Positions 11,964 to 49,641 of a DNA stretch of 59,202 bases are shown piece after piece (positions within the stretch are counted from its first letter, which is position 1; each line of letters starts with the position of its first letter). A model generated the notes under the pieces. That model searched no databases. It was not told the DNA's origin and was given only the letters and a program-made list of their open reading frames with translations. This DNA is from an uncultured Chitinophagales bacterium (lineage in GTDB: Bacteria; Bacteroidota; Ignavibacteria; UBA10030; UBA6906), in NCBI GenBank assembly GCA_964444145.1, contig CAYUFU010000010.1, forward strand, positions 1-59,202. Reading direction: 5' to 3'. The translations under genes were made by a program, and so were the position numbers.

Positions 11964-12148
11964 TGTACCGACTTTCTTCCTGGAATCTGCGACGCGGGAT
12001 TTCGTCTGCACATCATACGACCGGTCGCGGCGCATGCCGCTTTCGAGTGCCACGCTCGCAGTTCGGGATGTGGCTTCGCTTCCAGTTCATTCGTTGCTGA
12101 GTGGACCGAATCTCTCCCTTCGATATTTTTCAGGATCCACTTCTGCAT
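11960..12148 (-). CDS. Possible small protein (62 aa) coupled to both neighbours
   Basis: TGATG overlap with the upstream stop and ATGA overlap with the downstream start; no recognisable homology. Confidence 0.3.
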   Translation of the reverse strand: MQKWILKNIEGRDSVHSATNELEAKPHPELRAWHSKAACAATGRMMCRRNPASQIPGRKSVQ

Positions 12149-13410: not shown

Positions 13411-13457
13411 TCTCAGTACGGTGGTTGCCTTTGCAGTAGAGTATGCTCGCTCGTTGC

Positions 13458-20997: not shown

Positions 20998-22235
20998 TTC
21001 TCCTCCTTCCGACCGGTGACATGTTCATCGAGTCGGTACGCGTCATCTCTCCAGCGCTGGTACACGCCGTCCTCTTTTGCTTTTTGCGTGATGCGCTCTT
21101 GGAGGGTCGGCACCAACTCCGCTTTCAACAGGATGATCAATTCCTTCTTGCGCACCTCTTCTTTGTTGTAGCCGAAGAGGTAGCGCAAACCTAAAACGTA
21201 CCACGGTAAGTCTTTCAAGAACGGCACGCCGACGCGCACCTCCTGCACTTCGTTATTGTACAACCCGCCGATGATCGTTTCTTCGTTGTCGAGCAGCAGC
21301 ACATCGGTTGCGGCTTTCGTTTTGTTGAGGATGATGCTTCCTTGAGCGGGAACGAGGGAGCTTCGCTCGACATCCACTTTGAGGCGAACGAAGTTCACGC
21401 CGTTCTCGACGATGACTTGCGGGGTCACGTCAATGATGGTACCGGTACTGTAAAATTTGTCGAGCAGGTTGCCGGAGAAATCGCGTTCCTTGATGGAGAA
21501 GTCTTGGCCGACTTGAATGCGGCCTTTCTCACCTGAGCGGACGATGAGTTGAGGACCTGAAAGCACTTCACCGAGGTCATGCGCTGCGAACACTCGCGCA
21601 ACGGCAGTCACGTTTGCAAAGCTGAGCTTCGGGGTTGCTTGCACTTCAAAGATATCGCTGGTTACGCGATCGGCGGCGCCGAACGTCGAATTGACGACGA
21701 TGTCTTTGTTGCTCTTCATGAAATTCCAATTGATACCCGCTTCGTCGAGTTTCGAGAGGGAGACTTCGAAGAACACGGCGGAGATTTTGATCTCCCGACT
21801 CTTGAAGGTGGCGGCTTCGCGTTGAATGTCAACGATGGGGGGCGCACCGGCACCGGCGGGCTGATCTTTTCCTTTCGCATCGCCGCCCATTCCGACGATC
21901 TGGAAATAATTCGGATACTCTTCATACCACAAGCTCATCTTGCGGCAGATGGTTTCGAGTGCGGTGCGCCATTGCACGCCGTTGATGTCCACACCGATCG
22001 GCAAATCACGCCGCTCGGGATCGACAACAATCTTTCCGGTGTATTTCTTGCTCACCTCACTGATGGCAGCGAGTGCTTTGTCGAGCGTCGTGGTCGGTGC
22101 GATCGACACCAGCTCACCGGGCGACGTGTATTCTTTCAGCGCGCGCTGTTCTGCCGAATTGAGCGTCTGCGCGAGGCTTGTGATAACGCCGACGCCGATC
22201 AGCGCAAGTGCAACGATAATGGTTCGTGTGTTCAT
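20994..22235 (-). CDS. Short secretin (PilQ/GspD family)
   Basis: IKISAVFFEV, PQLIVRSGEKGRIQVG, GTIIDVTPQV, IIGGLY, GVPFLKDLP...LFG, ELIILLKAELV. Confidence 0.88.
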   Translation of the reverse strand: MNTRTIIVALALIGVGVITSLAQTLNSAEQRALKEYTSPGELVSIAPTTTLDKALAAISEVSKKYTGKIVVDPERRDLPIGVDINGVQWRTALETICRKMSLWYEEYPNYFQIVGMGGDAKGKDQPAGAGAPPIVDIQREAATFKSREIKISAVFFEVSLSKLDEAGINWNFMKSNKDIVVNSTFGAADRVTSDIFEVQATPKLSFANVTAVARVFAAHDLGEVLSGPQLIVRSGEKGRIQVGQDFSIKERDFSGNLLDKFYSTGTIIDVTPQVIVENGVNFVRLKVDVERSSLVPAQGSIILNKTKAATDVLLLDNEETIIGGLYNNEVQEVRVGVPFLKDLPWYVLGLRYLFGYNKEEVRKKELIILLKAELVPTLQERITQKAKEDGVYQRWRDDAYRLDEHVTGRKEEK

Positions 22236-22244
22236 GCTCCCCTC

Positions 22245-23234
22245 TTAGTTTTCAACGTGTTGATCTGGCAATGCCGCAGCAGGTGGTAACGTTAGCGTGT
22301 GCTGAGGCGATCCGTGCTGCGGCGGCGCCATCTGATACAGGTTCGATTGTTGTTGGTCTGCCGAATAGCGTATCTTCAACTCGACGTTTTCGATGATGCC
22401 TCCCTTGTTGAGCGTGCATTCGATCTTTCCTTGTTCCGAAGAAATTCTCGTCACGTACCCGAGATACACTTCATCGCCCGTTTCGAGAATTCTGAATTGC
22501 TGATTTTGATCGAGCACGAACGCCCGTCCGGGAATCACGGCTTTCAAATCCGCGCGCTCGATTTCGACAAGGTTATTCTTGTTCGGCGGCAAGTTCGCAG
22601 TGATGACCGGTTCGAAGGGATTGCGGCTGATGTACGTCGGTTCTCCGTCGTGGCTCGTGTTGGGTTTCGACAACTCAGGTATCGCAGCAAAGAAGGCATG
22701 GACAGTCATCTCGAACGTCACGATCAAATCTCCGGGGCGCTCCTTGTCGGTGAGCGGTAGTTCGACGCCCTTCATGTTGAGAGCGCTGATCTTGAAAAGC
22801 TTGCGGCCGTTTTCGATGTACCAGAGGAATTTGTAGAGATTCGAGAACGCGCCTTCGCCGCGCAAATTGTACGCGTTGTAGCCGTAGTTGCCTCGCGCCT
22901 GCAATCCCTGATAGACCATGTTGAGTTTCAAACCGCCGCTCTTTTCGATGAGCGAACTAAAGTACGCGTACGTTTTCCCGGTGTTGTCCTCCGGCGGAAT
23001 TTCTTTGCTTCGGCTTTCCCAGCGCTTCTTCGTCTCGGCGACGGTTGCGCTCAAGGAGTTGTACTCATGAAGCAGATGGGGCGTGTTGCTCAACTCTTCA
23101 TCAATGCGTTTGATCTCGGCATCAATCGCTGCTTCTTTCTTCGGGAGGTGGAAGGCGCGCATATAGGTTCCTACGCCGACAATCAGCAGGAGCAGAGCGC
23201 CCAAGACGATACTATTTCGAATCTTGTAGGACAT
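22245..23234 (-). CDS. PilO-like inner membrane alignment protein with C-terminal extension
   Basis: N-terminal TM, coiled coil, LRGEGAFSNLYKFLWYIENGRK ferredoxin-like motif, SRNPFEP. Confidence 0.65.
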   Translation of the reverse strand: MSYKIRNSIVLGALLLLIVGVGTYMRAFHLPKKEAAIDAEIKRIDEELSNTPHLLHEYNSLSATVAETKKRWESRSKEIPPEDNTGKTYAYFSSLIEKSGGLKLNMVYQGLQARGNYGYNAYNLRGEGAFSNLYKFLWYIENGRKLFKISALNMKGVELPLTDKERPGDLIVTFEMTVHAFFAAIPELSKPNTSHDGEPTYISRNPFEPVITANLPPNKNNLVEIERADLKAVIPGRAFVLDQNQQFRILETGDEVYLGYVTRISSEQGKIECTLNKGGIIENVELKIRYSADQQQSNLYQMAPPQHGSPQHTLTLPPAAALPDQHVEN

Positions 23235-23249
23235 CGGATCACTTTTTGC

Positions 23250-24809
23250 TTATTTCTTTTCTTCGATACTTGGCACATCAATTTTGTAGCGATAGACGGT
23301 TTCGTCGCGAATCTCCTCCGTCGTCACTTCCTTCAGCTCTGATTTATCGAACACCGCCGAGAGTCTCGGAATGCGCGACCGAGCAGCTGAGAAGCCGTTC
23401 ATGGTGACCTGACCTGTTTCACCTGCGGCAAACTCCGTTAGCCAAATCGAGTTGAGGTCATCTACGCTGTTGCTCAGCCGCGAGAAGGCTTTGCTGAATT
23501 TGTCTGCACCCGGTACGAGCGAATCGTAGAGTGCCATCGAAGCATTGTAGGACGCAAGCTGCTGCTGCAGGCTTTGGATCGAGCCTTGCAGCGCCGCGTT
23601 CTCTGCGATTTGGCTGTTCTTTACATCCAAGACGCTCTGTTTTTCTGTGATCTGTTGCTGCTTTTGTTTGATCTGCGTCGTGAAGAACACCGTGCCGGCA
23701 AAGATGGCACCAAGCAAGAGGTAGCCATGCCACGACAGTTTGAAGACGCGCTGTCCTTCGCGCACCGAGTCGGGTAGGAGATTCGTCGGATAAATCCTTT
23801 TGCTCGATCCGTCGAGGAACTTCCATGCAACCCCGATCGCCGCGGCGTAGTCGGATACCATTTCCTGCACTTCGGAAGGAAGGTGGCTCGTATCCACATT
23901 CGGCGCTCGCAGATAATCTACTTCCTGCTCGGGGAGCAACTCCTGCAAGAAATTCCTCAACTCAATGCGACGGCTCTCTCCTGCGAGGATGATGCGGTTG
24001 ATGCGCTGAATGTTCAGATTATCTTGCTCCAACAGCAAGCGACTGTAGATCATGTTGTGCAAGTTGGGGGAATCGTAGCCTTCGCTGATAATTGGCGCGA
24101 ATTGGTAGAACTGATCACCGCGCATGAAAATCAACCGCGTAAACTCGACGCCGACGTAGACCAGTACCGAGACTTCTTCCGGCTGCATTTCGTAATTCAG
24201 CCGGACCATACTCATGAGCGAGATATCCGAACTGTCTATTCCTGCAATCGTTGGAAGGCGATTGCCGAGAAAGCCTTTGATGTTTTCGAGGTGATTGAGC
24301 AGTGACATGCCCTCTTCACGCACGACACAGAGGATGCCGTTTTCATTCGTGGGAATCGAATCCACCGCGTCCGGCGTCGGTTGAAACGTTCGGGTGTTTT
24401 TCAACTCTTCGATGATGCGGAGCTTCAGCTTCTTGCCTTGCAGCCCGAAGTTGCTCTCGAATTGGTGATAATAAATCGAAGGTTCAGAAATGCAGTACGC
24501 CAACGAGTAACTTTTCGGTTTGTACTGTGAAAGAAGCCCGAGCAGAACAGCGTTGTTGTCTTCGCCGCTTGCCTCAGAGGCAGGCAGTGCCATCGTTTCC
24601 AATTCCGGCAACTTGAACGGGTCTTTGTCATCGCCGACGACAGCGGCGGCTTCGGTTGGCTTGCGCTCTTCCAGTTTCGTGGCGAGTGTCGCGGATTTCA
24701 GCTCCTCGATGAAAACCTTGCCGCCCTTCTTTGCGAGACGCGCAAGTTTCACATCGGCGCCATCCACGAACAGACCGATGACGGATTTGTTACCTCCGAT
24801 AAATCTCAT
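23250..24809 (-). CDS. PilM-PilN fusion protein
   Basis: N-terminal IGLFVDGADVKLA actin-like start, VYVGVEFT, RIILAGES, AAAIGVA, then TM, coiled coil and IWLTEF...VTMNGFS PilN-like domain. Confidence 0.7.
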   Translation of the reverse strand: MRFIGGNKSVIGLFVDGADVKLARLAKKGGKVFIEELKSATLATKLEERKPTEAAAVVGDDKDPFKLPELETMALPASEASGEDNNAVLLGLLSQYKPKSYSLAYCISEPSIYYHQFESNFGLQGKKLKLRIIEELKNTRTFQPTPDAVDSIPTNENGILCVVREEGMSLLNHLENIKGFLGNRLPTIAGIDSSDISLMSMVRLNYEMQPEEVSVLVYVGVEFTRLIFMRGDQFYQFAPIISEGYDSPNLHNMIYSRLLLEQDNLNIQRINRIILAGESRRIELRNFLQELLPEQEVDYLRAPNVDTSHLPSEVQEMVSDYAAAIGVAWKFLDGSSKRIYPTNLLPDSVREGQRVFKLSWHGYLLLGAIFAGTVFFTTQIKQKQQQITEKQSVLDVKNSQIAENAALQGSIQSLQQQLASYNASMALYDSLVPGADKFSKAFSRLSNSVDDLNSIWLTEFAAGETGQVTMNGFSAARSRIPRLSAVFDKSELKEVTTEEIRDETVYRYKIDVPSIEEKK

Positions 24810-24864: not shown

Positions 24865-26097
24865 TCAATCGCCAATCGCGTTCGAGTTTAGGATTTGCTG
24901 CAAACGCCGCTTGTTATTGGCGTTTACCATTGCCGTATCCAGTGAAATTCGTTTCTGCAGGTACAATCGTTTCAAATCCTGTTCCAATGTTATCATGCCG
25001 ATGTCGCCTGATTCTGCCATCATCTGATAAATTTCACCCGTATTGTTATTCTTGATTGCCGCGCGCACCGATGGAATTGCGAGCATTACTTCTTTTGCAA
25101 GCGTTACCTTCCCATCGAGAGTCGGGACGAGGCGCTGTGAGACTACGCTGCTCAACGTATCGCCTAAGCGAAGACGCACACGCTCTTGCTCGATGGGAGG
25201 CACTTCGCCGATGATACGATCAATGGTTTCGACTGCGGAGGCAGTGTGCAGTGTCGAGAACACTTTGTGACCGCTGTCGGTGATTTCGAGCGCAGTGAGA
25301 ATCGTATCCGGGTCTCGCATTTCACCGATGACGATGATGTCCGGGTCTTGACGCAGCGATTGTACGGCACCTTCTTTGAACGAGAGCACGTCGCGCCCAA
25401 CTTCGCGATGACGGATGATGCAGCGGTCGGGCTTGTGCACGTATTCGATGGGCGATGCAATGATGACGATATGGGCGTCTGTCGAATGGTTGTTCGCGTC
25501 GATGATCGTATCGAGTGTCGAGCTTTTGCCCGATCCCGTAATGCCGGTAATGAGATTCAATCCTTGTGGTGTATGTGCGAGGCTCAGCGCCTTGGTCACG
25601 TTCGGATGAAACTCGAGATTCTTGAACGGTCGCACCGTCGCGTTGATTGCGCGCATGTTCAGCGCGAGATGATCGAGATCGAAATAGGCATCCGCACGAA
25701 ACCGATTCATCGTCTCACCCTCAATTACCATGTAGGAGAAATCGAGGTTGCGGTTCTCGTACAAAAACAACCGCTGACGGTCAACGAGAATGCTCTGGAT
25801 CAGCAGACTCATTTCATCGGCACTGAACGTCGGAAGTGTCGTATCCGGTTTCTTGTCGCCGTAGATGCGATACCAAATGTTGCCCTTCGTGCCGAAGCCT
25901 CCGAGATCAATGTCGGAGGCGTTCATTTTTTGCATGCGGAGCAGAATCGAATCCGTCAATTTGCGCAGCGCTGAACGCTCGGCAGGCGACATCTTGCTTG
26001 CGAGGTCGCCGATGAGCATTTGGCGCTCGACGCCGGGTGCCGTCACGGGCAGGCTTGCCGCAAGTTGCCGCAAGGTTTGTACTGCTGTTTCAGTCAT
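24865..26097 (-). CDS. pilT: PilT/PilU-family retraction ATPase
   Basis: ITGITGSGKSST, SLRQDPDIIVIGEMRD, GHKVFSTLHT, VVSQRLVP, GMITLEQDL; alternative TTG start at 26109. Confidence 0.85.
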   Translation of the reverse strand: MTETAVQTLRQLAASLPVTAPGVERQMLIGDLASKMSPAERSALRKLTDSILLRMQKMNASDIDLGGFGTKGNIWYRIYGDKKPDTTLPTFSADEMSLLIQSILVDRQRLFLYENRNLDFSYMVIEGETMNRFRADAYFDLDHLALNMRAINATVRPFKNLEFHPNVTKALSLAHTPQGLNLITGITGSGKSSTLDTIIDANNHSTDAHIVIIASPIEYVHKPDRCIIRHREVGRDVLSFKEGAVQSLRQDPDIIVIGEMRDPDTILTALEITDSGHKVFSTLHTASAVETIDRIIGEVPPIEQERVRLRLGDTLSSVVSQRLVPTLDGKVTLAKEVMLAIPSVRAAIKNNNTGEIYQMMAESGDIGMITLEQDLKRLYLQKRISLDTAMVNANNKRRLQQILNSNAIGD

Positions 26098-26105
26098 TGC
26101 TGTTG

Positions 26106-27893
26106 TCAATCATCCGTTGTGCTTGCCGCAATTTCTTCCAACGTTGTCACGCCGCTCTTGATCCGCTCGATGCCGGAGCGGCGCAGCGTCCACATGCCGT
26201 CTTTTATCGCCTGGTCCCGGATTTGTTCTTCGTCCACCTCCTTACCAGCCTTCGCAATCATGACACGAATACTCTTCGTGAAATAAAGTGCCTCGTGAAT
26301 TGCCGCGCGTCCCTTGTACCCGCCGTTGCATTTGTCGCAGCCCACGGCTTCATAGAAAACCGGATTCACCAGTTCGTCTTCACGAAAGCCGAACGAGAGA
26401 TACATCTCCGTATCAATATCATCGGCAGGAATCTGTCGCTTACACACCTTGCATAACGTCCGAATGAGGCGCTGCGCAACAATGACGTTGATGGCATACG
26501 CAATCAAGAATGGCTCAATGCCCATCTTGTACAGGCGCGAGACTGCGCTCGGCGCATCGTTCGTGTGCAATGTGGAAAACGTCAGGTGGCCTGTGTTCGC
26601 AAGTTTGATTGCGATTTCCGCCGTTGTTTTATCGCGCATCTCGCCGACGAGCACGATGTCGGGGTCGTGACGGAGAATGCCGCGAATCGCTGACTCGAAA
26701 TTCATCTTCGGCCCAATCTTCAACTGCCGCGAACCCTTGATGATGTACTCCACCGGCTCTTCGACCGTCAAGACGTTTACTGTCGGGTCAATGACCGCGT
26801 GCAGGGCGGCGACCAGCGTCGTGCTCTTGCCGCTTCCTGTCGGTCCAGTCAGAATAACGATGCCCTGCGGTTTCGTGATGGCCTTTTTGAACGACTCCAT
26901 CGTAGGACCCTGCAAGCCGAGCTTGTTCAAATCGGTGATCACCTTCCGATCATCGAGCACGCGAATAACGATGCTCTCATACTTGTGCTTGAACTCCGTC
27001 CCGACCATCGGCATGATGGAAACGCGAAACCGAATGCGATGATCATCAATGACCCGTTGGATGAAGCCGTCCTGCGCCGCCTCGCGTTCGAAGCGGTCAA
27101 CGTTCTTCGAGCGATCCTTCACCACTGCCGCGATCGCTTCGGGCAACGTGTTCTCCTGCGCGTGCCAGAGCTGCAGGTTGCCGTCGAGGCGAAACCACAG
27201 CTCGGTGCGGTTACCGTCCTTCGGAACGATGTGGATGTCACTTACACCTTGCCGCACAGCTTCGACGAGCGCCCCCTCGAAGAGATTGACGAGCGCACTC
27301 TTATTGATCTCGGCTTCGAGCACGCCCTCGTCCAGCGTGCTTTCATCCTCCTGTACCTGTACGTCCTGCTGGTTATTCTCTAACTGTCGGAGGAATTCGT
27401 TTTCGACAGGGACGATCTGTTCGAGTAAGCGTTTGATGCTCTCGAGGCGGCTGTACACCACCTCATACTTTTTTGCGTTGAAGTTTCTGGCGATCAGAGG
27501 AAGCCGCCGATCGGTTGGATCGGCGGCGGAAATGATGAGTTTGTCGGATTGGCGCTCGTCGTACTTGAACGGAAGCATCTTCGCTTCCATCAGCATAGTG
27601 CGTCCCGCCTCAGGCAGTGCGTCAACGAGCTTGCGCATGAAGTCAATCCGGGACTTGTCCACGGTTTCATCATCGAGCTTCAGCTCGCGAAAGGCATAGA
27701 GTTCGGCGACCTCTTTGAACACCGCGTCATGATCCGCGCCGAAATCGTAGACGAGAATCTGACCCAAATTGCGACGGTTCTTTCCTCCATCAGTCTCTTT
27801 GACTTTGAGAGATTTTTCCAGCGTCTCATAGTCAATGATACCCTTCTTGAGAAGGGTGAACCCAATCTTGTCGGTAATGTCAACAGCCGCCAT
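26106..27893 (-). CDS. pilB: PilB/GspE assembly ATPase (copy 1)
   Basis: SDIHIVP, AQDGFI, LTGPTGSGKSTTL, ILRHDPDIVLVGEMRD, GHLTFSTLHTNDA, CKVC/CDKC zinc site. Confidence 0.9.
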   Translation of the reverse strand: MAAVDITDKIGFTLLKKGIIDYETLEKSLKVKETDGGKNRRNLGQILVYDFGADHDAVFKEVAELYAFRELKLDDETVDKSRIDFMRKLVDALPEAGRTMLMEAKMLPFKYDERQSDKLIISAADPTDRRLPLIARNFNAKKYEVVYSRLESIKRLLEQIVPVENEFLRQLENNQQDVQVQEDESTLDEGVLEAEINKSALVNLFEGALVEAVRQGVSDIHIVPKDGNRTELWFRLDGNLQLWHAQENTLPEAIAAVVKDRSKNVDRFEREAAQDGFIQRVIDDHRIRFRVSIMPMVGTEFKHKYESIVIRVLDDRKVITDLNKLGLQGPTMESFKKAITKPQGIVILTGPTGSGKSTTLVAALHAVIDPTVNVLTVEEPVEYIIKGSRQLKIGPKMNFESAIRGILRHDPDIVLVGEMRDKTTAEIAIKLANTGHLTFSTLHTNDAPSAVSRLYKMGIEPFLIAYAINVIVAQRLIRTLCKVCKRQIPADDIDTEMYLSFGFREDELVNPVFYEAVGCDKCNGGYKGRAAIHEALYFTKSIRVMIAKAGKEVDEEQIRDQAIKDGMWTLRRSGIERIKSGVTTLEEIAASTTDD

Positions 27894-27922
27894 GCGCAAT
27901 CAGGGAGTTGGCGTTTATGTTC

Positions 27923-29299
27923 TTACGTCATGCGCGTCGTCGTGTGTACCGACGTCGCGCCCATCGCGGGATTCTTCGGACGCACGGTCGCAGTCTCGGA
28001 CGAGACGATCGTCAACGCGGTCAACACAATCATGATGACCATCGAAATCACGACTTGGATGTAGTCAATGGCGTTTCGCATTTTGTACGACGTTTCCTTC
28101 TCGTAGTATTCCGCAAGCTGTAGCGCCGTGTTCTTCACCGTTCCAGTTTCCGCGCCGGAGTGGAATCGAGAGATCGCGGTTTTCGTGAACACGTTGGCAG
28201 CTTCGAACGCTTCCGTGATGCCCGCGCCTTTTTGCGTCATCATCGGTAGTGCGATGGTCTTGATCTGATGTTCCATATATTTGTTGCCGCAGGCTTCCGC
28301 CGCCATCCGAATGACTTCGATGTTTTCGCCCGCGCCGCTGTATAACGAATAGAAGACACGACAGAAAATCTCGATGTTGCTCTTGTGCATCAACGATCCG
28401 ATGATCGGGACCTTCCAAATGTAACTGTCGAGGATAAAGCGCCCTTTCTCCGTCGTGAAAAATTTTACCGCCGCGACGATGGGGACGACCGTGCAGATCA
28501 CAATCATCATGGAGTTTTCGATGATGAAATCGCTCAGGTCCATCGTTGCCGCGGTCATCGGCGGCAATTCGATGCCAAACTTGCGGAACAACCCCGCCGT
28601 CGCGGGAAAGATGTAGCCGACGTAATAGATGACCGCACCGAACAACACGACGAGCGTTACGAGCGGCATGATGAGCGCGCTTTTCAAATTCTTTTTGAAC
28701 TCGGCTTGGCGTTCGAGGAATTTTGCAGTGCTATCGTAAATCTCGGCCATATTCCCGCTCTTCGAAGCGAGACCCAACATGTGAGCCGTAAAGCGGCCGA
28801 GCACCGCTTCATGCTTGACGAACGCGCGCTCGCTGTCCTTACCCTGTTTCAGCTCCGTGTTGATTTCCTTAATCGTCTCGCGCAGCGTTCTGTTCTGAAT
28901 GTCGTTCACGAGCAACTGCATGATTTCGTTGAACGGCAGTTTCTGCCGAATCAAATCCGCGCTGACGCGGACGAACGTGACGATCTCGCCGGACGGCGGT
29001 TTGGTTTTCACCTCGAAGAGACGCTTCTGCACGCGCAGAACGCGGTAGCCCATTTTTTGCAGCGCCTCCTCGACCTCGCCTTTGGTGAATGCCTTTTGCT
29101 CACCGGTAATCGGCTTCTCCGTTCCGCGCTGAACTTTGTAGATCCACGTCGCGCGTGGAACGATGTTCAGAATTTTGAAATTGCGCGCAGTCGCCATCTG
29201 GCTTGCTTTCTGCTTCGCCGCCTTCAGCGACTCCGCTTCCAGCACTCCTTGCAGCGGCTTGCCTTCCGTGGTAACACCTTCGATTCTGAATTCGGGCAT
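27923..29299 (-). CDS. pilC: PilC/GspF platform protein
   Basis: N-terminal EGVTTEGKPLQGVLEAES, two GspF domains, FGIELPPMT, KVPIIGSL. Confidence 0.88.
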   Translation of the reverse strand: MPEFRIEGVTTEGKPLQGVLEAESLKAAKQKASQMATARNFKILNIVPRATWIYKVQRGTEKPITGEQKAFTKGEVEEALQKMGYRVLRVQKRLFEVKTKPPSGEIVTFVRVSADLIRQKLPFNEIMQLLVNDIQNRTLRETIKEINTELKQGKDSERAFVKHEAVLGRFTAHMLGLASKSGNMAEIYDSTAKFLERQAEFKKNLKSALIMPLVTLVVLFGAVIYYVGYIFPATAGLFRKFGIELPPMTAATMDLSDFIIENSMMIVICTVVPIVAAVKFFTTEKGRFILDSYIWKVPIIGSLMHKSNIEIFCRVFYSLYSGAGENIEVIRMAAEACGNKYMEHQIKTIALPMMTQKGAGITEAFEAANVFTKTAISRFHSGAETGTVKNTALQLAEYYEKETSYKMRNAIDYIQVVISMVIMIVLTALTIVSSETATVRPKNPAMGATSVHTTTRMT

Positions 29300-29462: not shown

Positions 29463-29867
29463 CTAATTCAATGTTTCAATGTACGTGCTCTCGGGCCAGA
29501 CTGTTACTTGTACCTGTACGCTCGTAGCTCCGTCGTTTCCTTTGTTGTTTCCTGTTCCCGTGATTATGACAAACGCATCGGACGCCGCCGCCGGATCGGG
29601 GGAAAGAACGTATGTTCCGTTCGCGTTCGTCGCGTTCACGGCAATATCGGCGAAGCGCAAGCCGTTGAACGAATATCCGCCGCCGCGCATCGCTTCGGGA
29701 CGGCGATAATATTTTTGCGCCTGCACGGCAAAATTCGCGAGGTCATTCGCGATCGAATCGCGATTGGTCGAAGATGCCTGATCCTTGAACATGTCCAGAC
29801 CCACGGCAATCATAATGCCGACGATTATTACGCCGACCAAAATCAAAAGTAATTGCTGTGACCCCAT
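29463..29867 (-). CDS. Non-canonical type IV pilin-like protein (divergent copy)
   Basis: MGSQQ plus hydrophobic helix, GI..FKD and QKYY in canonical pilin register; located in the T4P locus. Confidence 0.75.
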   Translation of the reverse strand: MGSQQLLLILVGVIIVGIMIAVGLDMFKDQASSTNRDSIANDLANFAVQAQKYYRRPEAMRGGGYSFNGLRFADIAVNATNANGTYVLSPDPAAASDAFVIITGTGNNKGNDGATSVQVQVTVWPESTYIETLN

Positions 29868-30045
29868 AACTTAATCTCTTGTTTCCTATTCTTCCCCCAC
29901 CTACGTCCTGTGCCGATCGTCCAACAGGCTCTCTCGGATTTCAGAGAGGACCTTGCACATCCCGGCGAAGCAGCTTTTCGCACGTTCATCAGGAGAATTC
30001 TATTTGCCTCTATCTCCAGTGAGCGCGACGATCAGATCAGCATCA

Positions 30046-30456
30046 TTAGTTATTCTGCAACATTCCCGTCGAGTCGGCGAAAACGTAGATGCTCATATTG
30101 AGCGGATTCGTATTGTCCGTTCCTTTCTCCTTGCCAATGCCACGAATCACGACGCTTGAGGAAGTTCCCGCAGTTTGGACGGAATATGTACCGTTTGCGT
30201 TCGATGACTTTGAGGTCAGCTTTGCCAGACCCGCCGCATCTGCCGTCAAACCGACGAAGGAGTTTCCGCCGCCGCTCAACGCCGTTGGACGGCGATAGTA
30301 CTGCTGGGCGCGTGATGCAAGGTTCACGAGATCGTTCGTCACCGCATCGCGGTTCGCCGACACTGCGTTATCCTGAAACATCGTGATACCGACCGCTACT
30401 GCGATGCCGACCACGATAACGCCGAGGATGATGAGAAGCAATTGCTGTTGACCCAT
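30046..30456 (-). CDS. Non-canonical type IV pilin-like protein (tandem copy 2)
   Basis: MGQQQLLLIILGVIVVGIAVAVGITMFQD...QQYY; only 3 aa differ from 30553-30963. Confidence 0.8.
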   Translation of the reverse strand: MGQQQLLLIILGVIVVGIAVAVGITMFQDNAVSANRDAVTNDLVNLASRAQQYYRRPTALSGGGNSFVGLTADAAGLAKLTSKSSNANGTYSVQTAGTSSSVVIRGIGKEKGTDNTNPLNMSIYVFADSTGMLQNN

Positions 30457-30515
30457 AGTGCCTGCCTAGCCTTTGTTAAAGTGTTTATGCTACAATTGAG
30501 ATAACCATCAAACAC

Positions 30516-30543
30516 AGTTGCGCTCTCCGAAGAGAGCGCAACT
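30516..30543 (-). other. Perfect 12-bp hairpin with cUUCGg tetraloop between the duplicated pilin genes
   Basis: agttgcgctctc-TTCG-gagagcgcaact on the minus strand, 9 nt after the stop. Confidence 0.7.
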
Positions 30544-30552
30544 CGAAACGAA

Positions 30553-30963
30553 TTAGTTGTTCTGGAGAACACCGGTTGAATCGGCAAAGACGTACATGCT
30601 CATGTTGATCGGGTTCGTATTGTCCGTTCCTTTCTCCTTGCCAATGCCACGAATCACGACGCTCGAGGAAGTTCCCGCAGTTTGGACGGAATATGTACCG
30701 TTTGCGTTCGATGACTTTGAGGTCAGCTTTGCCAGACCCGCCGCATCTGCCGTCAAACCGACGAAGGAGTTTCCGCCGCCGCTCAACGCCGTTGGACGGC
30801 GATAGTACTGCTGGGCGCGTGATGCAAGGTTCACGAGATCGTTCGTCACCGCATCGCGGTTCGCCGACACTGCGTTATCCTGAAACATCGTGATACCGAC
30901 CGCTACTGCGATGCCGACCACGATAACGCCGAGGATGATGAGGAGAAGTTGTTGTTGACCCAT
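30553..30963 (-). CDS. Non-canonical type IV pilin-like protein (tandem copy 1, probable major pilin)
   Basis: Same sequence features as copy 2; first in the cluster, with an A/C-rich leader and sigma54-like site upstream. Confidence 0.8.
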   Translation of the reverse strand: MGQQQLLLIILGVIVVGIAVAVGITMFQDNAVSANRDAVTNDLVNLASRAQQYYRRPTALSGGGNSFVGLTADAAGLAKLTSKSSNANGTYSVQTAGTSSSVVIRGIGKEKGTDNTNPINMSMYVFADSTGVLQNN

Positions 30964-31054: not shown

Positions 31055-31071
31055 TTCAACCACTGTGCCAA
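31055..31071 (-). promoter_or_regulatory. Sigma54-like -24/-12 promoter upstream of the pilin cluster
   Basis: TTGGCAC-AGTGG-TTGAA versus consensus TGGCAC-N5-TTGCW (A instead of C at -12). Confidence 0.45.
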
Positions 31072-31176: not shown

Positions 31177-33033
31177 TCAGTCGAGAGCAGTTGCGGAAAC
31201 GACTTCATCAACACTCGAGACTCCTTGGCGCGCCAGCGCGAGGCCCGAGCCGCGCAGGGTGCGCATCCCATCTTTGATTGCGGCTCGATTGATCGCATCT
31301 GTATCAACTTTCTCACCGCTGTTGATGATGATCTCGCGAATCTCCGGCGTAACATACAGCGTTTCGTGTATTGCGCGTCTTCCCTTGAATCCACCGACGC
31401 AATGCGGACAGCCAACGGGTTCATAGAGCTGGAGATCCGGAATTTCCTCTTCCGTGAAGCCGGACTTGAGCAGCATCTTCGTATTCAACTCTTTCACCGG
31501 ACGCTTACAGCGATCACACAACTTGCGGACGAGGCGCTGCGCGACAACGATGTTCAACGCTTGCGCTATCAGGAACGGCTCGACGCCAATCTTGAACAGG
31601 CGCGACACAACGCTCGCTGCATCGTTTGTGTGCAAGGTCGAGAATGTCAAGTGCCCCGTGTTCGCAAGCTTGATGGCAATGTCCGCCGTCGCACGGTCGC
31701 GAATTTCGCCGACCATGACAATGTCCGGATCGTGACGAAGGATTGCGCGAATGGCGTCATCGAATGATAGTTTGTGGTTCAGCTTCACCTGTCGCGCACC
31801 CTCGATTAAATACTCGACAGGGTCTTCGACAGTAATCGTGCAGACCGAAGGGTTCATTACCGTGCGCAGTGCCGCGACCAGTGTCGTGCTTTTTCCGCTT
31901 CCCGTAGGACCCGTGAGAATAACGATGCCGTGAGGTTTGGTGATCGCCTCTTTGAACCGTTCGAGAGAGTACGGGTCAAGACCAATGGATTCGAGCGAGA
32001 CGGAGGCGTGCGCGTCTTTCAAAATACGGATCACCACCGACTCGAATTTCCCCGTCATCTCCTTCGAAATTATCGGAAGAACCGACATGCGAAAGCGAAC
32101 AAGCTGACCGTCAATCATCTTCTGTGCCTGGCCATCTTGTGCTGCCATGCGCTCAAAGCGATCGAGACCGATGCCGCGTCCCTTCACGACGGCGACGACC
32201 GCTTCTGCGCGCGTGTCTTCGATCGTATACCAGTTCATCAGCTCGCCGTCAATGCGGAAGTTGACCTCCGTTTTCCGCGCACCCTTCGGAACGACATGAA
32301 TATCGCTTGCTCCGCTTCTCACCGCGTCCGAAAAGATGTTGTTGACGAGATTAATGAGCTGGCTGCTTTCGATCTCACGATCGAGGGCGCTATCCTGCGA
32401 GCCATCGCCGTCCTCCAAGAATCCATCACCGACCGATGTGATGCCGGGAGCAGTTTGATTCTTCTCGTTGGTGATGAGCTGCCACCACTCGTCCCAATCG
32501 CTTTCTTTGAGGTAGCAGATCTCGTGCTTGGCATAAGGGAATGCTCTCGCAACTTCGCTCACTTCACGGTCGGTCGGATTGGGAGTAACGACGAGAATCT
32601 TGTCTGACGTGCCCTCGGCAGTTTCGAAGGGGAGAACTTTGTGCCGCATCGCAAGCCGGTAGGCTGGCCCGGGCAACTCTTCGATCATCTTCATGACCGT
32701 GGCATTGTCGAACCGGCGGGGGTTACGTTCATTGATGTCAACGATACGAAATGAATAAAACTGCGCAAGCTCGCGTGCCAGCAAGTCCTTGCTGATTGCA
32801 AACTCATCGGCGAGGATATCGTTGATGCGGCGCTTGTCGGATCCCTTATGCTCCTGCACATATTCCGAGGCTTCCGTTGCGATTTTGTCGCTCAGGACCC
32901 GGTTGCGAACCAAATGCTCGAGGAACGCCGACGCGTATTTTTTCTTCGGCGCCTGTCCCTCCGGCATGCGGCTCTGTGATCCCGGCTTTCCGAATTGGAG
33001 GTTCGGTTTCAAATTGTCGCTCACGATCGGCAT
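31177..33033 (-). CDS. PilB/GspE assembly ATPase (copy 2)
   Basis: ASDIHVVP, AQDGQA, LTGPTGSGKSTTL, ILRHDPDIVMVGEIRD, GHLTFSTLHTNDA, CDRC/CPHC. Confidence 0.9.
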   Translation of the reverse strand: MPIVSDNLKPNLQFGKPGSQSRMPEGQAPKKKYASAFLEHLVRNRVLSDKIATEASEYVQEHKGSDKRRINDILADEFAISKDLLARELAQFYSFRIVDINERNPRRFDNATVMKMIEELPGPAYRLAMRHKVLPFETAEGTSDKILVVTPNPTDREVSEVARAFPYAKHEICYLKESDWDEWWQLITNEKNQTAPGITSVGDGFLEDGDGSQDSALDREIESSQLINLVNNIFSDAVRSGASDIHVVPKGARKTEVNFRIDGELMNWYTIEDTRAEAVVAVVKGRGIGLDRFERMAAQDGQAQKMIDGQLVRFRMSVLPIISKEMTGKFESVVIRILKDAHASVSLESIGLDPYSLERFKEAITKPHGIVILTGPTGSGKSTTLVAALRTVMNPSVCTITVEDPVEYLIEGARQVKLNHKLSFDDAIRAILRHDPDIVMVGEIRDRATADIAIKLANTGHLTFSTLHTNDAASVVSRLFKIGVEPFLIAQALNIVVAQRLVRKLCDRCKRPVKELNTKMLLKSGFTEEEIPDLQLYEPVGCPHCVGGFKGRRAIHETLYVTPEIREIIINSGEKVDTDAINRAAIKDGMRTLRGSGLALARQGVSSVDEVVSATALD

Positions 33034-33037
33034 AATG

Positions 33038-33409
33038 CTACGCGCTCATCGCACTCTGCAGTTTGTTCAACGTCGTGATGATCTCCGTTACTGGCGACGT
33101 CTTGCTGATAAAGTAGTCCACCGCCGAGTCTTCCAATGCCTGCTGGGTGTAAGGGTCATCATAGCCGGACATGAAGATGAAGGGCATATCGCGAAAGCCC
33201 AAAAACTCTCGGACATAGCTATGGAACCGAATGCCATCAAGCGTCGGCATAAACACGTCTGAGATGACGACATCAACGGATTGATTCTCCAATACTTCGC
33301 GCGCCGCCTTTCCATTGTCTGCAATCAAGACAGTGTATCCACTGCCTGTAAGGAGTTGTTCCATGACTTTCAGGAAATCCTCGTTATCGTCAACAATCAG
33401 AACCTTCAT
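33038..33409 (-). CDS. Single-domain response regulator (CheY-like)
   Basis: KVLIVDD, DVVISDVFMP phospho-Asp, FMSG, YFISK. Confidence 0.9.
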   Translation of the reverse strand: MKVLIVDDNEDFLKVMEQLLTGSGYTVLIADNGKAAREVLENQSVDVVISDVFMPTLDGIRFHSYVREFLGFRDMPFIFMSGYDDPYTQQALEDSAVDYFISKTSPVTEIITTLNKLQSAMSA

Positions 33410-33831: not shown

Positions 33832-35376
33832 GTGGAGTTCGACGGAATTGATTTGAAACTGCTCGCGCTAACGTTGCTCTTCAGTTTGTCTGCATTTTGC
33901 CAGTCCGAAACACCCTCTCGCAACAGCCCCGTCTTCAAGAACTATAAGCCGCCCACGGCAACACCGCGCATCGAGCATTCGGATGCGACGTACCAGATGT
34001 GGGAGGGGTTTCGCGTGTTGCAGCAGGCGAACGCTGGTGATGTTGTTTCGCAATTTGAGGTGAGCATTCGGTATCTCACGGGTCGAGGGTTCAAAGCCGA
34101 TACGGCGAAGGCGGCGTACTGGACAAGACGCGCGGCAGAGAAGAATCATCTCCTTGCGCGATTCAATCTCGGCATTTTTCAGTTTAACGGGTGGGGGACG
34201 GATTGGAATCCGTTCGAGTCGTACCGCAATTTTCGGTTTGCTGCTGAGGGAAACATTCCCGAGGCGCAATATGCAGTTGCACAGTTTCTCACCGAAAACC
34301 TCGTCGTGCCAGCCAATTGGCAGGAAGCCTTCCAGTGGGTGAAGCTCGCAGCAGATTCCGGTTATGCACCTGCAAAAGCGATCTTGCCGGCGTTCGAGCG
34401 TCGCGGCTACCGCAGTGATTCATCTGCAGCGCAACGCACACGGGGCGAACCTGAAGCATCTACACGCGGAGCAATCCAGCTTTTGTTCATCAACTTTTCC
34501 CCCGATACAATCAAGGTATCTCCGGACTCCGTGTTGGTTGACGACCTGCTCAAAGCTGCGGCATTGACAGACAATGCTGCCATGCGCGCTGTTGCCGAAT
34601 CCCTTGCCGTGGAGCAGGGAAGGATAATAACAGACTCCGCCACGTTTCGCCACCTCATGTCGTTCGCAGAGGCGGGCAGTCCGGAAGCGCTGACACTGAT
34701 TGCGCGTTGTTACGAAAAAGGATATCGGATCACGAGCGATACTCTCACAGCGGCAATGCACTATATTCGCGCTATACGCCTTGATTCGCGCCGTGCGCCG
34801 CGACTCTTGCACACTCTCATTCAAAGCAAGAACTTCTTCCCGACTCTGCAAACGAAGGTCAATGAGGGAAACGCCGACGCGCAGTACATATGGTCATGCT
34901 TGATCGCGTTGGGATTTGACAGGCAGCTCACGGACGCGCAGGCATTGCGGATGCTCGAGCGCGCTGCTGCCGCGCATCACCCACACGCGTTGGTGGAGTT
35001 GGGCTTGTGTTATTACACTGGACGATGGGTGAATAGGAACGAAGGAAAGGCAAAGATGCAATGGCAGAAAGCAATAGCTGTCGGCAGTGCGGAAGCGAGA
35101 GTCCGGCTCGCCGTTGCAAAACTACGCGGGCGAGATAGAGACTACGCGTACGCGCTCGCGGCTCTGCGTCCCGCAGTCCGCGAGGGATCGGCACTTGCGG
35201 AATTTGCTCTCGGCTATTGTTTTGAGACGGGGAGTGGCGTGCCAAAGAGAATGGAAGAAGCGGCACGGCTCTATCGCAGCAGTGCCCAGCGCGGCAGTCA
35301 GGATGCACTACGTGCGCTGCGCCGAATACATGATAGCCTACGGCCGCGCGACAAACAGTTTCAGCTTGACGACTGA
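33832..35376 (+). CDS. Exported Sel1-like repeat protein
   Basis: Signal peptide; repeated AQY.VA/AAYW..RAAE, ALVELGLCYYTGRWV and AEFALGYCFETGSGVPK Sel1 motifs. Confidence 0.85.
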   Translation: MEFDGIDLKLLALTLLFSLSAFCQSETPSRNSPVFKNYKPPTATPRIEHSDATYQMWEGFRVLQQANAGDVVSQFEVSIRYLTGRGFKADTAKAAYWTRRAAEKNHLLARFNLGIFQFNGWGTDWNPFESYRNFRFAAEGNIPEAQYAVAQFLTENLVVPANWQEAFQWVKLAADSGYAPAKAILPAFERRGYRSDSSAAQRTRGEPEASTRGAIQLLFINFSPDTIKVSPDSVLVDDLLKAAALTDNAAMRAVAESLAVEQGRIITDSATFRHLMSFAEAGSPEALTLIARCYEKGYRITSDTLTAAMHYIRAIRLDSRRAPRLLHTLIQSKNFFPTLQTKVNEGNADAQYIWSCLIALGFDRQLTDAQALRMLERAAAAHHPHALVELGLCYYTGRWVNRNEGKAKMQWQKAIAVGSAEARVRLAVAKLRGRDRDYAYALAALRPAVREGSALAEFALGYCFETGSGVPKRMEEAARLYRSSAQRGSQDALRALRRIHDSLRPRDKQFQLDD

Positions 35377-38300
35377 TTGATGAGGGAGTGGATGTCGCGG
35401 TCCAACACTTCGCGCACTCTTGCTGTCAGCTCGGTTGCGAGATACGGTTTGTGAACAAACTCGTGGACGCCGCCGTTGACCATCTCCTGCTTCGCCTCCG
35501 GATCGAGGTAGCCGCTCGCAACGATGATGCGCACGTGCGGATTCATCGCCTTGATCCGCTTGCACGCAGTCCAGCCATCGAGTTTTGGCAAACCAAGATC
35601 GGTCAAAACCAAATTCACTGTGTCTTGGTTTTCTCGAAACGTCTGGATAGCCTCCTCGCCATTGGTTGCCGTGAGGACGGTGTAGCCTTTTCCTTTGAGC
35701 AGGGATTCCACTAACTCGCGCAACAGGTCTTCGTCTTCGACCAGCAGTACGGTTTCTTTGCCGCCCGGGAGATCGCGCTGTTGTTCCACCTCCAAGGCTC
35801 TGTCCTCGATCGGAGAATGGGGGATGGGGAAATACAACTCGAAGCTGGATCCTTCTCCCGCGGCGGAACGTACGTCAATGAACCCGCGATGCGCGTTGAC
35901 GATACCATAAACCACGGCAAGCCCCAAGCCGGTGCCACGGTCGCGCCCCTTTGTCGAGAAGAACGGCTCGAAAATTTTGGCGCGCACTTCCTCGGCGATG
36001 CCCGAACCGGTGTCGCTGACGAGGATGCCGGCGTAGTACGACGCGCTCGCTTCAGGGAATGCGGTGCGCAACCCACTGCCCGCTACGATTTCTGTTTTCA
36101 ACGTCAACGTTCCGCCCGAGGGCATCGCATCACGCGCATTGACGCACAGATTCAATACTGCCTGGTGGATTTGATTCGAATCGCCGATGATGAGCGGCAG
36201 TGTTGGGTCGAGGGCGATCTGCAACTCGATGTTGCGTGGGAACGTTTCTTTCAGCAACCGCGCCAATTCATCTACGACGGCGTTGACATTCATCTCTTCG
36301 AAGGAGACATCCGTTTTGCGCGCGAAGGTGAGCAACTGCTTCACGAGATTTGCACCCCGCTGCGCGGCGGTCCCGATTGCCATGGCGTCTTTTACTACCT
36401 TCCCCTCCTTGCTCTTCGCCAAGCGCTCGGAATAACCGAGAATGATGGCGAGAAGATTGTTGAAGTCGTGTGCGATGCCGCCGGCGAGTCTGCCCAACCC
36501 TTCGATCTTTGCTGTTTCCTGCAAGCGTTGCTCCAGTTGCTTGTGCGCTGTATTGTCGAACAAGTAGCCCTTCGCGCCGATAAGCGTGCCTGAGGAATCG
36601 AATAGCCCGATGACATTCTGTATGAGAAACACCGGCTTACCATCTCGGCGTCGGGCGATGCACTCGTGGTAATCAACGCGTCGACGTTCCGCGAGTAGTG
36701 CCATGAGGTCGGAAAAACTCTGTTGCTCGCCGTACACAGAGTTGAGATTACAATACATCGCCTCCTCGATCGAAGCAAAACCAAACATTGTTGCAAACGC
36801 CTTATTGCACGCGAGGATGCATCCGTCGCGGCTTGCGATGAAGTCGCCCGTCAAATCTTCCTCGAAGAACTTGCGGTATCGCTCTTCGCTTTCGCGCAAC
36901 GCGTCTTCGATGTGCTTGCGGCTGGTGATATCGAGAAACGTCATTACGGCGCCGTTGGTTTTGCCCGTCGAAATGTCGAGCAGCGGAACCGCAGTAAACA
37001 CGCCCCAAGAAATTCCGCCGTCGGGGCGTCGGACACCGAATGTCTTGGGCGGACGCTCTTCGCCGGTGCGCAGGCATTGCAGGAGAGGGAACTCTTCTGC
37101 GTCGAAATCGCTTCCGTCCCCCCAGAGATTTATCGTTGCGAGATGGTCAACAGTTGTTTTCAGAAATTCCAGCGCGGATATGCCGTAGAAGCGCTGCGCG
37201 TCGAGATTCGCCTGAAGAACTCTTCCATCTTGCGCGACTTCGATGATGCCGCCCGGAACCGCTTCGAGAATGCGATGCGTCAGTTCTTCACTGCGGCGCA
37301 ATTCTTCTTCGAATTGCTTGCGTTCGGTGATATCGACTGCCGTGCCCATCAACACTTTCTCGCCGTGCACTTCAATCATGCTCGGTGCAACGTCGAGCCA
37401 TTTCACCTCGCCATGCTTGGTGCGAATCTTTAGCTCGTAGCGTGCCGGAACGCCTTTTCCCTGTTGACGTGCGATGGCTCGCTGACGAACAAGCTCATGA
37501 TGGTCGGGATGCACGAGGGCGGTAAAGCGCATGGTGCGCAACTCCTCCTTCGAGTAGCCCGTGAGTTTTTCCATCGCACGGTTGACGTACGGGAAGCGTC
37601 GGTCTTGATAGAAAAAAATAGCGGCGGTCGTCGTTTCGGTCAGTGCCCGCAGCATCGCTTCGCGTTCGCGCAGTTCCTCTTCCATCTTCTTCCTTGCCGT
37701 GATGTCGAGGAATGTGACCACCGCGCCGTTTGTCTCGCCGCCGCTCAACAACGGCACCACCGTGAACACCGCCCATGTCATACTATCGTCCAAGCGGCGG
37801 ATGCCCATCGTCACCGGACCTTGTGCAGTTCCTGTTTTCAAACATTTCACAACGGGAAAGTCCTCGTAGGGGCATACGCTGCCGTCCTCCCAAAACTTTC
37901 GATGGACGAAATCCTGAACGGCAAAATTCGTCAATTCCTTATTCGATAACCCATAGAACCGTTCTGCTTCCGTATTTGCCTGGACGATTCTTCCGTCTCT
38001 GGAAATGACCAGCACACCGGTCTGCGACGCGTCGAGGATCCGCGCCTTCAATTCTTCACTGATGCGAATCTGTTCTTCGAGGTGCATGCGCTGAGTGATA
38101 TCCTCGCAGACGATGAGCACCATCGGCTTGCCCTCGGGATCGCTCATGAGTTGCGCAACTTCGCTCACGTGAATGATGGTACCGCTCTTATGGACCTTGC
38201 GAAGCTCCCATGAGTGCGTCGCGCCATTTCCGTGTAGACACATGTCAAGATTGCGCGCGATTGTTTCTCGATCGTCGTGATGAAACACGCTAAACATCGA

Positions 38301-42163: not shown

Positions 42164-42508
42164 TCAACTCCCGCGATAGGTCGAATAGCCGAACGGGCTC
42201 AACAGCAACGGAATGTGGTAATGTGATCGCGCACTCCTGATTTCAAATGTCACTTCAACGACGGGATAGAAAGCGGTTATTCTTTTCCGCCTGAAATACG
42301 CTCCGGTTTCAAATCTCATGCGGTACGTTCCCGCGGACAACACAAAATCGGGCGGCAGTAAGTCCGTGATGCGTCCGTCATCGTCTGTCGTTCCTGCGGC
42401 GAGCTTCATCCATGTGCTGCCGATTTTCTTTTCCAGCGTCGAGCGAATTCCTTGCGCAGGTTGACCGCGCATCGTATCGAGCACGTGTGTCGTTATTGGA
42501 CTTAGCAT
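42164..42508 (-). CDS. uraH: 5-hydroxyisourate hydrolase (transthyretin-like)
   Basis: ITTHVLDT..GQPA, TDDDGRI, FYPVVEVTF, HYHIPLLLSPFGYSTYRGS. Confidence 0.95.
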   Translation of the reverse strand: MLSPITTHVLDTMRGQPAQGIRSTLEKKIGSTWMKLAAGTTDDDGRITDLLPPDFVLSAGTYRMRFETGAYFRRKRITAFYPVVEVTFEIRSARSHYHIPLLLSPFGYSTYRGS

Positions 42509-49577: not shown

Positions 49578-49641
49578 ACTCCATCACTCCATCACTCCAT
49601 CACTCCACCGATCCACTACTCCAACACTCCATTACTCCACT
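49578..49641. repeat. Tandem octamer array, 8 x ACTCCAYY-like (GATGGAGT-like on the mRNA strand)
   Basis: actccatc x3, actccacc, gatccact, actccaac, actccatt, actccact. Confidence 0.8.

Follow-up and report, generated by a model that had tools for sequence, protein, structure and literature searches.

The known proteins closest to those considered here are the major pilins of type IVa pili (T4aP), namely PilA/PilE (PF07963, TIGR02532), and to our knowledge two features are treated as defining and universal in the type IV filament superfamily, namely that an A24 prepilin peptidase cleaves off a class III leader and that a glutamate is conserved at position 5 (Glu5). The tools with which pilins are found (PilFind, FlaFind, the N_methyl hidden Markov models (HMMs) and TXSScan) are built on the same class III leader and Glu5. 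In this study we analysed a stretch of 59,202 nucleotides (nt) from an uncultured Chitinophagales bacterium (contig CAYUFU010000010.1 of assembly GCA_964444145.1; the whole stretch is called the window below), where three adjacent genes at 29463-30963 encode proteins of pilin-like architecture with no such leader and no Glu5, and we propose that they are subunits of a type IV pilus-like filament which are made ready for assembly without a prepilin peptidase.

With type IVa major pilins these proteins have in common their length (about 135 amino acids (aa)), an N-terminal helix of about 52 residues whose first 20-25 are hydrophobic and highly conserved, a head with a four-stranded antiparallel sheet, and a helix-breaking glycine, which falls on G14 of the canonical proteins when the two are aligned at an offset of three residues (the +3 register). 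The gene layout also agrees, in that the pilin gene or genes stand at the head of a PilB/PilC/PilT/PilM/secretin cluster, with a sigma-54 promoter probably in front and a terminator behind the gene. Unlike in type IVa major pilins, only Met-Gly(-x) is found before the helix, there is no basic leader, no Phe or Met at +1, and Leu or Gln in place of Glu5; there are no cysteines, hence no D-region disulfide, and no match to the N_methyl HMMs, and a prepilin peptidase gene is neither present in the cluster nor reported in the complete genome of Melioribacter roseus, a carrier of the operon. Fold, machine and gene layout are those of type IV pili, and the new part is the missing class III leader, Phe1/Glu5, disulfide and (probably) peptidase.

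The pilins of Methanococcus maripaludis processed by EppA (EpdA-E) likewise have a glycine and then a glutamine at the start of the hydrophobic helix, and Gln at +1 is a hallmark of EppA substrates (PMC4371748). Their leader is, however, longer, with Lys/Arg at -2, and they have Glu5, while the possible leader here would be two uncharged residues long; compared with an EppA-type site ([KR]-G↓Q with Glu at +5), the G-Q is present, whereas the basic residue at -2 and Glu5 are absent. The hosts here are, moreover, bacteria, and no EppA-like gene was seen. The Bacteroidetes system resembling the type II secretion system (T2SS), such as CHU_3191-3201 of Cytophaga hutchinsonii, comes from the same superphylum and is similar in its divergent pilins and PilM/N/O-like platform proteins (PMC5553014, PMC6668835); it groups with T4aP (PMC6668835), and in C. 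hutchinsonii the cluster includes a Peptidase_A24 gene, CHU_3197, whose neighbour encodes a canonical pseudopilin (PMC5553014). That cluster has recognisable pseudopilin helices and no PilT, whereas the operon described here has PilT, no A24 gene and leaderless subunits. Minor pilins of the GspK/PilX type also lack Glu5 and are built into type IV filaments all the same, but they carry a class III leader cut by prepilin peptidase and are large, single-copy tip subunits, not the major subunit. In the literature we found no description of type IV pilins without class III leader, Phe1/Glu5, disulfide and peptidase, nothing relevant on leaderless or PilD-independent pilins or on the motif MGQQQLL, and no experimental data on the polymerisation of MGQQQLL proteins.

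Gene starts and conservation across the family

The interval 29463-30963 is exactly filled by three minus-strand open reading frames (ORFs) with the N-termini MG(Q/S)QQLLL. Pilin A copy 1 (30553-30963, minus strand; 136 aa, beginning MGQQQLLLIILG) opens the operon and presumably encodes the major subunit, pilin A copy 2 (30046-30456, minus strand; 136 aa) is 98% identical to it, and pilin B (29463-29867, minus strand; 134 aa, beginning MGSQQLLLILVG) is a conserved second paralog, 49% identical to A, and comes after A in many loci. Since a direct DNA repeat of 300 nt (95% identity, 507-nt spacing) spans the two pilin A genes, they are a recent tandem duplication.

In-frame stops are located 4, 3 and 1 codons 5' of the ATGs of A copy 1, A copy 2 and B, where the upstream frames read T-stop-RNNT-MGQQQ, G-stop-AGT-MGQQQ and D-stop-V-MGSQQ, respectively, so that no upstream start, canonical or not, adds a leader; AAGGAA lies 8 nt upstream of the ATG of A copy 1. 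The same is seen in 119 family genes which we identified in 78 related loci from GTDB species genomes, where the Met follows the nearest in-frame stop by a median of 4 codons, and by no more than 10 codons in 100 of the 119. Enough upstream sequence for scoring of the start was available for 118 of them; 111 start with ATG, and 96 have a Shine-Dalgarno-like motif at -18 to -4. A hidden upstream start was considered for the three pilin genes, and it is ruled out by these stops in the window, with which the stops of the family genes agree.

Ahead of the helix the three proteins have only M-G-(Q/S), with zero Lys or Arg, and their residues 1-28 contain zero Asp or Glu. Cysteines are completely absent, so the D-region disulfide of Gram-negative T4a pilins is missing as well. 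In the +3 register the residue at +1 is Gln4 and that at +5 is Leu8, in place of Phe/Met and Glu; numbering from Met1 puts a Gln at residue 5 in both pilin A and pilin B. The original prediction had described these proteins as lacking a class III signal, Phe+1, Glu+5, a basic leader and cysteines, and direct reading of the ORFs and of their upstream stops agrees with it, for the signal, Phe+1 and Glu+5 family-wide; the residues it quoted from the 136-aa proteins (G17-I18, F27-Q28-D29, Y53-Y54) are all in place, the last of them within A50-Q51-Q52-Y53-Y54. A Sec signal is not indicated, given the zero charge before the hydrophobic region and the fact that residues 1-29 are the best conserved, and neither is a Tad/Flp pilin, given the length of 134-136 aa with a globular head. 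Regex scans of the window gave 0 matches to the Flp motif G↓xxxxEY and no canonical pilin elsewhere in it.

A search of 5.8 billion proteins gave 3133 homologous clusters at 90% identity, and the best 120 homologues of these all begin MGQQQLLLIILG except for one, which begins MCQQQ. An exhaustive profile search of 1.84 billion representatives at 50% identity gave 1972 clusters with E ≤ 0.001. Conservation was determined on the best 150 of these 1972 clusters, of which 127 are full-length, with the Met start in the same place. Among these 127 members M1 is conserved in 100%, G2 in 93%, Q3 in 78%, Q4 in 93% and Q5 in 98%, followed by L6-L7-L8; residue 2 is otherwise Ala (5), Met (2), Ser (1) or Glu (1), and rare members, with no Gly2, start with MMQQQ, MEFSQ or MSNGK. 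There is no conserved charged residue at positions 1-28, and the information per column is higher in residues 1-29 (3.17 bits) than in the head domain (1.82 bits). Gly2 is encoded by all four Gly codons in the 118 family genes, therefore selection acts on the amino acid. Second genes of the MGSQQ type are also present in the related loci. From these results it can be seen that the leaderless start of the family is not due to chance.

The family is found mostly in Ignavibacteriota, Kryptoniota, Calditrichota and allied groups; besides these three phyla, the 78 loci span Zixibacteria, KSB1, unclassified "Bacteroidota" metagenome-assembled genomes (MAGs) and Stygiobacter electus. M. roseus P3M-2 (CP003557.1) has two family genes (127 and 128 aa; MROS_0598/0599) in the same operon, of which MROS_0599 is P0276 in our set, and the operon is also carried by the closed MAG chromosomes OY970334.1 and OY969800.1. 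Family members were also seen on short contigs of a Candidatus Kerfeldbacteria MAG (L038) and an Actinomycetota MAG (L030), and these are probably binning contamination and not part of the true distribution. The family has no entry in Pfam or NCBIfam, and the precomputed Pfam field is empty for all homologues; many members carry the Joint Genome Institute pipeline label "Tfp pilus assembly protein PilE". Relatives of the head domain with other architectures were also recorded (P0130, P0185, P0252, P0221, P0244, P0121, P0228, P0171 and P0196), among them proteins in which a lipoprotein/Sec signal replaces the MGQQQ helix, proteins with 3-5 tandem heads (376-581 aa), and proteins with a zinc ribbon and a transmembrane N-terminus. 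Because these relatives swap the helix or repeat the head, the head domain can also work outside the filament context or without the helix.

Predicted fold, register and gene order

AlphaFold2 models of pilin A (predicted local distance difference test score of 87; helix 4-55) and pilin B (83; helix 3-55) both consist of a long N-terminal helix, a short loop helix and a four-stranded antiparallel sheet on which the long helix is set, i.e., the pilin architecture. When the model of paralog A was compared with the Protein Data Bank (PDB) by Foldseek, the top match was the full-length PAK pilin 1oqw (probability 0.99, TM-scores 0.63/0.60, E 0.05), while the other matches were noise; most solved pilins are N-terminally truncated. 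Support for a pilin fold from the structural library can thus be taken as moderate. As the original prediction expected, the N_methyl scan was negative, with no match of the three proteins to PF07963 or TIGR02532 at E ≤ 0.1 in Pfam and NCBIfam. The minor pilin family ComP_DUS of Pfam gave a weak match (1.3e-3), and the NCBIfam pseudopilin families gave no significant match to the three proteins, the nearest being GspH against paralog B (E 0.061, 13 bits with a cut-off of 80).

The +3 register, which the original prediction had proposed, was reproduced by two alignments, neither of which is significant by itself. With HMMER, residues 9-48 of the family profile align onto mature residues 6-45 of Geobacter PilA (PDB 2m7g; E 0.19, not significant), and with hhalign, residues 29-47 align onto 35-53 of the E. 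coli GspG preprotein, i.e., mature 26-44 (probability 2.9%, not significant); the probabilities of hhalign against single E. coli pseudopilins are very low, and these alignments were used for the register only. G17 is then opposite G14, while Gln4 and Leu8 take positions +1 and +5, so the proposed Gln at +1 and Leu at +5 hold in this register, but the assignment depends on the register, and Gln5, numbered from Met, is the best-conserved polar residue, because of which the equivalence of the tip residues cannot be fixed by alignment.

The genetic linkage is that of a type IV pilus, with PilB, PilC, PilT, PilM/N and secretin genes all present in the window. Downstream of the pilins, and on the same minus strand, lie a PilC/GspF-type platform protein (27923-29299; Pfam T2SSF 5.9e-28, with NCBIfam PilC/GspF matches below the equivalog cut-offs), which adjoins the pilins in 49 of the 78 related loci, a PilB-type assembly ATPase (26106-27899; Pfam T2SSE 4e-97, TIGR02538 416 bits) and a PilT-type retraction ATPase (24865-26109; TIGR01420 pilT_fam 312 bits, 5.8e-93). 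These are followed by a PilM-like protein with a PilN-like C-terminus (23250-24809, minus strand; NCBIfam Amuc_1101 PilM-like 2.5e-7, Pfam PilN weak at 0.064), whose position is kept in 29 loci, by a bitopic protein (22245-23234, minus strand) with an N-terminal transmembrane segment and no Pfam family, kept in 19 loci, which by its position may have a PilO/PilP-like role, and by a short secretin of 413 aa (20994-22235, minus strand; Pfam Secretin 1.9e-26, with GspD and PilQ matches). The order pilin (1-4 copies)-PilC-PilB-PilT-PilMN-x-secretin is shared by the majority of the 78 loci and by the operon of M. roseus P3M-2, and there is no other pilin candidate in the window or in the M. roseus operon. 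The identification as pilins is supported by this conserved operon together with the AlphaFold architecture, the Foldseek match of one paralog and the N-terminal 29 residues being the best conserved.

Upstream of the pilins, a second, full-length PilB-type ATPase is encoded at 31177-33033 (minus strand; Pfam T2SSE 8e-105, TIGR02538 425 bits), in the same position in 11 loci, and upstream of it a stand-alone receiver protein at 33038-33409 (minus strand; Pfam Response_reg 7e-23), in the same position in 17 loci; two assembly ATPases per pilin set are unusual. A sigma-54-like -24/-12 element, TGGCACAGTGGTTGAA, lies at 31055-31070 (minus strand), about 100 nt upstream of pilin A copy 1, and is the only site of the window with at most one mismatch from TGGCAC-N5-TTGCW. 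For 19 of 115 family genes the 250 nt upstream contain the pattern TGGCAY-N5-TTGM, in most cases at a distance of 85-107 nt from the ATG, with a background in the loci overall of 0.005 per 250 nt. We identified no sigma-54 activator in the window, and the neighbouring response regulator is a receiver domain only. Directly after the stop of pilin A copy 1, a terminator-like hairpin is found at 30516-30543 (minus strand; 12 bp stem, 7 G-C). A sigma-54 promoter and a hairpin after the gene are typical of major pilin genes, and in this operon the element may serve as the promoter and the hairpin as an attenuator or terminator. The gene at 35361-39947 (minus strand) encodes a hybrid histidine kinase of 1528 aa, in which about eight PAS domains are combined with HisKA, HATPase and receiver domains; in 21 related loci the pilus operon is flanked by similar PAS kinases.

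Between PilB and PilT, about 22-25 of the related loci have three extra genes, X1, X2 and X3 (e.g., L005:14223-16650, L007:8903-11324, L026:14348-16961 and L077:14159-16674), none of which is present in the window or in M. roseus. In their products, the hydrophobic helix is preceded by 1-5 residues. X1 proteins begin MGLGQTLLTI, MNTGQTLITF or MTNTGQMLLV (pattern MxxG-Q-T-L-L-T); X2 exists in a long form, MG[SANGF]-Q-V-I-L-D-L-I, and a short form, M-[S/A/T]-[VI]-x-L-D-L-I-G (e.g., MSVMLDLIG); and X3 proteins, of 366-460 aa, begin MG[RK]ASVLLV or MFGKG-TLIIVFG and resemble GspK. Among 120 homologues of X2-short, residue 2 is Ser in 93, Ala in 11 and Thr in 5, and 110 have no acidic residue before the one at position 6, so that after Met removal an Asp would stand at +5, with a Gly at +14 in the sequences inspected, as in mature canonical pilins. 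If Gln is taken as +1, X2-long (MGx↓Q-V-I-L-D5...G14) and pilin A (MGx↓Q-Q-L-L-L5...G14) share one register. Searches of X1-X3 against Pfam, NCBIfam and the PDB gave nothing but a weak DUF4900 match for X3, and hhalign placed their N-termini onto E. coli pseudopilins, weakly. X1-X3 may accordingly be regarded as candidate minor pilins, and if so, the shrinkage of the leader would be a property of the whole system.

Maturation of the proteins and rival explanations

The reading which we favour, with a probability of a little under 0.6, is that these proteins are leaderless pilins which build a type IV pilus-like filament and mature through loss of the Met only, with no prepilin peptidase. All three genes would encode filament subunits, two of them the major pilin in near-identical copies and the third a second pilin. 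The class III signal peptide is missing from their translation products, which begin with Met, Gly and 2-3 Gln and continue with the hydrophobic half (about 20 residues) of the helix of about 52 residues. It is already known that the Met of a Met-Gly start is removed by methionine aminopeptidase. The subunits are probably inserted into the inner membrane with the N-terminus in and the C-terminus out, and deformylase and methionine aminopeptidase would probably be the only enzymes of maturation, leaving Gly-Gln-Gln-Gln-Leu at the tip and no A24 prepilin peptidase step. The adjacent PilC/PilB/PilT/PilM-N/secretin machine would then extract and polymerise the subunits, and the uncharged Gly-Gln-Gln-Gln tip may replace the pair of N-methyl-Phe1 and Glu5 in the filament core.

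The original prediction had left two routes, assembly without a peptidase or a cut at G↓Q, and the evidence leans to no peptidase. Peptidase_A24 of Pfam has no match among the approximately 40 large ORFs of the window that were scanned, and in the 1.23 Mb around the 78 loci (within 10 kb of the loci) neither an A24 motif (regex), nor a homologue of E. coli GspO (phmmer), nor a canonical class III signal was found. In the report on the complete genome of M. roseus, pilB, pilC, pilT and pilQ are present, and pilA and pilD are stated as "not found". The missing pilA is explained by the leaderless family, as MROS_0599 is a member of it, and the missing pilD, if confirmed, is a prediction of the leaderless model. 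X2-short has no Gly ahead of the helix, therefore it cannot be an A24 substrate.

Several points weigh against the leaderless reading. No filament has been observed. The Foldseek support consists of one match (paralog A, E 0.05), and for paralog B no pilin was among the significant matches, so that of the structural check proposed originally, the predicted pilin-like fold stood for both paralogs and the library match for A only. A sequence search of solved structures with the family profile gave sub-significant matches only, and the N-terminal motif and operon position are the sole basis on which X1-X3 would be minor pilins. For whole genomes, the case for an absence of A24 comes from the 2013 annotation of one genome and from gene neighbourhoods. 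At least one Ignavibacteriales MAG has been reported with a canonical, PilFind-positive pilin (PMC7399161), therefore a peptidase (PilD) is probably present in parts of the phylum. In addition, Gly2 is far more conserved than Met removal alone demands (X2-short uses Ser, Ala or Thr there), Gly and then Gln is the exact site required by archaeal EppA, whose substrates need Gln at +1 (PMC4371748), and the MxxG-Q-T-L-L of X1 and the MFGKG-T of some X3 proteins resemble short cleavable leaders.

The last four points speak for the main rival explanation, which we find doubtful, though it has to be taken seriously, namely that these are prepilins with a minimal leader, where Met-Gly(-x) would be a vestigial class III leader cut at Gly2↓Gln3 by a peptidase encoded elsewhere, as EppA cuts KG↓Q; the new N-terminal Gln may then cyclise to an uncharged pyroglutamate, making Glu5 unnecessary. 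Conservation of Gly2 in 93% of members with all four codons would fit such a site, but rare members (MMQQQ, MEFSQ, MSNGK) have no Gly, nor does X2-short of the same operons before its helix, and the +3 register, with G17 on G14, makes -1 the variable Q/S/N/T. A leader of 2 residues would also be below any shown to be processed, since no A24 enzyme is known to cut a leader of fewer than 3 residues, which is the minimum for PibD, that for FlaK being 5 (PMC4187195), and it would have no basic residue at -2, while Met aminopeptidase would probably have taken the Met off already. A peptidase may exist in the phylum, as the MAG with a canonical pilin suggests, but pilD was not found in M. roseus, and no A24 gene was found among the scanned ORFs of the window or in the 78 neighbourhoods.

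It seems quite unlikely that the proteins are not filament subunits at all, being instead periplasmic accessory proteins of the machine with the hydrophobic stretch as membrane anchor, or carrying an uncharged Sec signal which is cut near A21-V22-G23↓I24 and frees a soluble periplasmic protein. Positions 21-23 ([AV]-V-G) do satisfy the -3/-1 rule in most members, and six of the head-domain relatives (P0130, P0185, P0252, P0221, P0121 and P0228) have lipoprotein/Sec signals in place of residues 1-25 or tandem heads; as said above, no filament has been seen, and the Foldseek support is thin. However, signal peptides drift, yet residues 1-29 are the best conserved part across approximately 2,000 clusters, there is no positive n-region, and AlphaFold2 gives one continuous helix over residues 4-55. 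The genes stand in 1-4 tandem copies at the head of the PilC-PilB-PilT operon and come with a sigma-54-like promoter, strong ribosome sites and a hairpin, which is the usual layout of a major pilin, and no other pilin candidate is on offer in the window or the M. roseus operon. Finally, an improbable variant, which concerns function only and fits either route of maturation, is that the leaderless subunits form a short periplasmic secretion piston (T2SS/Bacteroidetes T2SS-like) and not an external retractile pilus, as the short secretin (413 aa), the lack of minor pilin genes in the window operon, the second PilB-like ATPase and the clustering of the Bacteroidetes "T2SS" with T4aP in phylogenies (PMC6668835) might suggest, but the PilT-family retraction ATPase in the conserved operon favours a retractile pilus over a secretion pseudopilus, the pilin genes are multi-copy with pilA-like expression signals, and no NCBIfam pseudopilin matched significantly.

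Neighbouring genes and meaning for the family

Farther from the pilus operon, and on the same minus strand, the window carries a purine/ureide catabolism group with HIUase/transthyretin, DUF6986 (HpcH-like), allantoicase and amidohydrolase genes (42164-42508, 45878-47311, 49641-50651 and 50716-52089), among which sulfate permease and Na:alanine symporter genes are interspersed. The product of the gene at 12148-13482 (minus strand) has a plug domain of the type 9 secretion system (T9SS_plug_1st), in agreement with an origin of the contig in the Fibrobacterota-Chlorobiota-Bacteroidota (FCB) group; within that group the organism is of the Ignavibacteriota type.

For the wider lineage, the chances seem to us evenly balanced that the type IV pilus machines of Ignavibacteriota, Kryptoniota, Calditrichota and related phyla of the FCB group have dispensed with the class III signal peptide and the prepilin peptidase, their major and, in some operons, minor pilins being ready to assemble after removal of the initiator Met, with a Gly-Gln-Gln-Gln tip in the place of the N-methyl-Phe1/Glu5 charge pair. 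The question of leaderless pilins is directly testable, since the cultured species M. roseus, Stygiobacter electus and Rosettibacter firmus carry the operon.

If the lineage-wide reading is true, leader cleavage would not be obligatory in type IV filament assembly. A large natural family of major pilins lacking both leader cleavage and Glu5 would then show that neither insertion into the membrane nor assembly requires the leader, and it would offer a natural experiment on the roles of Glu5 and of the N-terminal amine in the filament core. It would also account for genome reports of "pilB, pilC, pilT, pilQ but no pilA or pilD", as in M. roseus, and the pilus annotation of thousands of genomes, from bacteria abundant in soil, sediment and hot springs, would be corrected.

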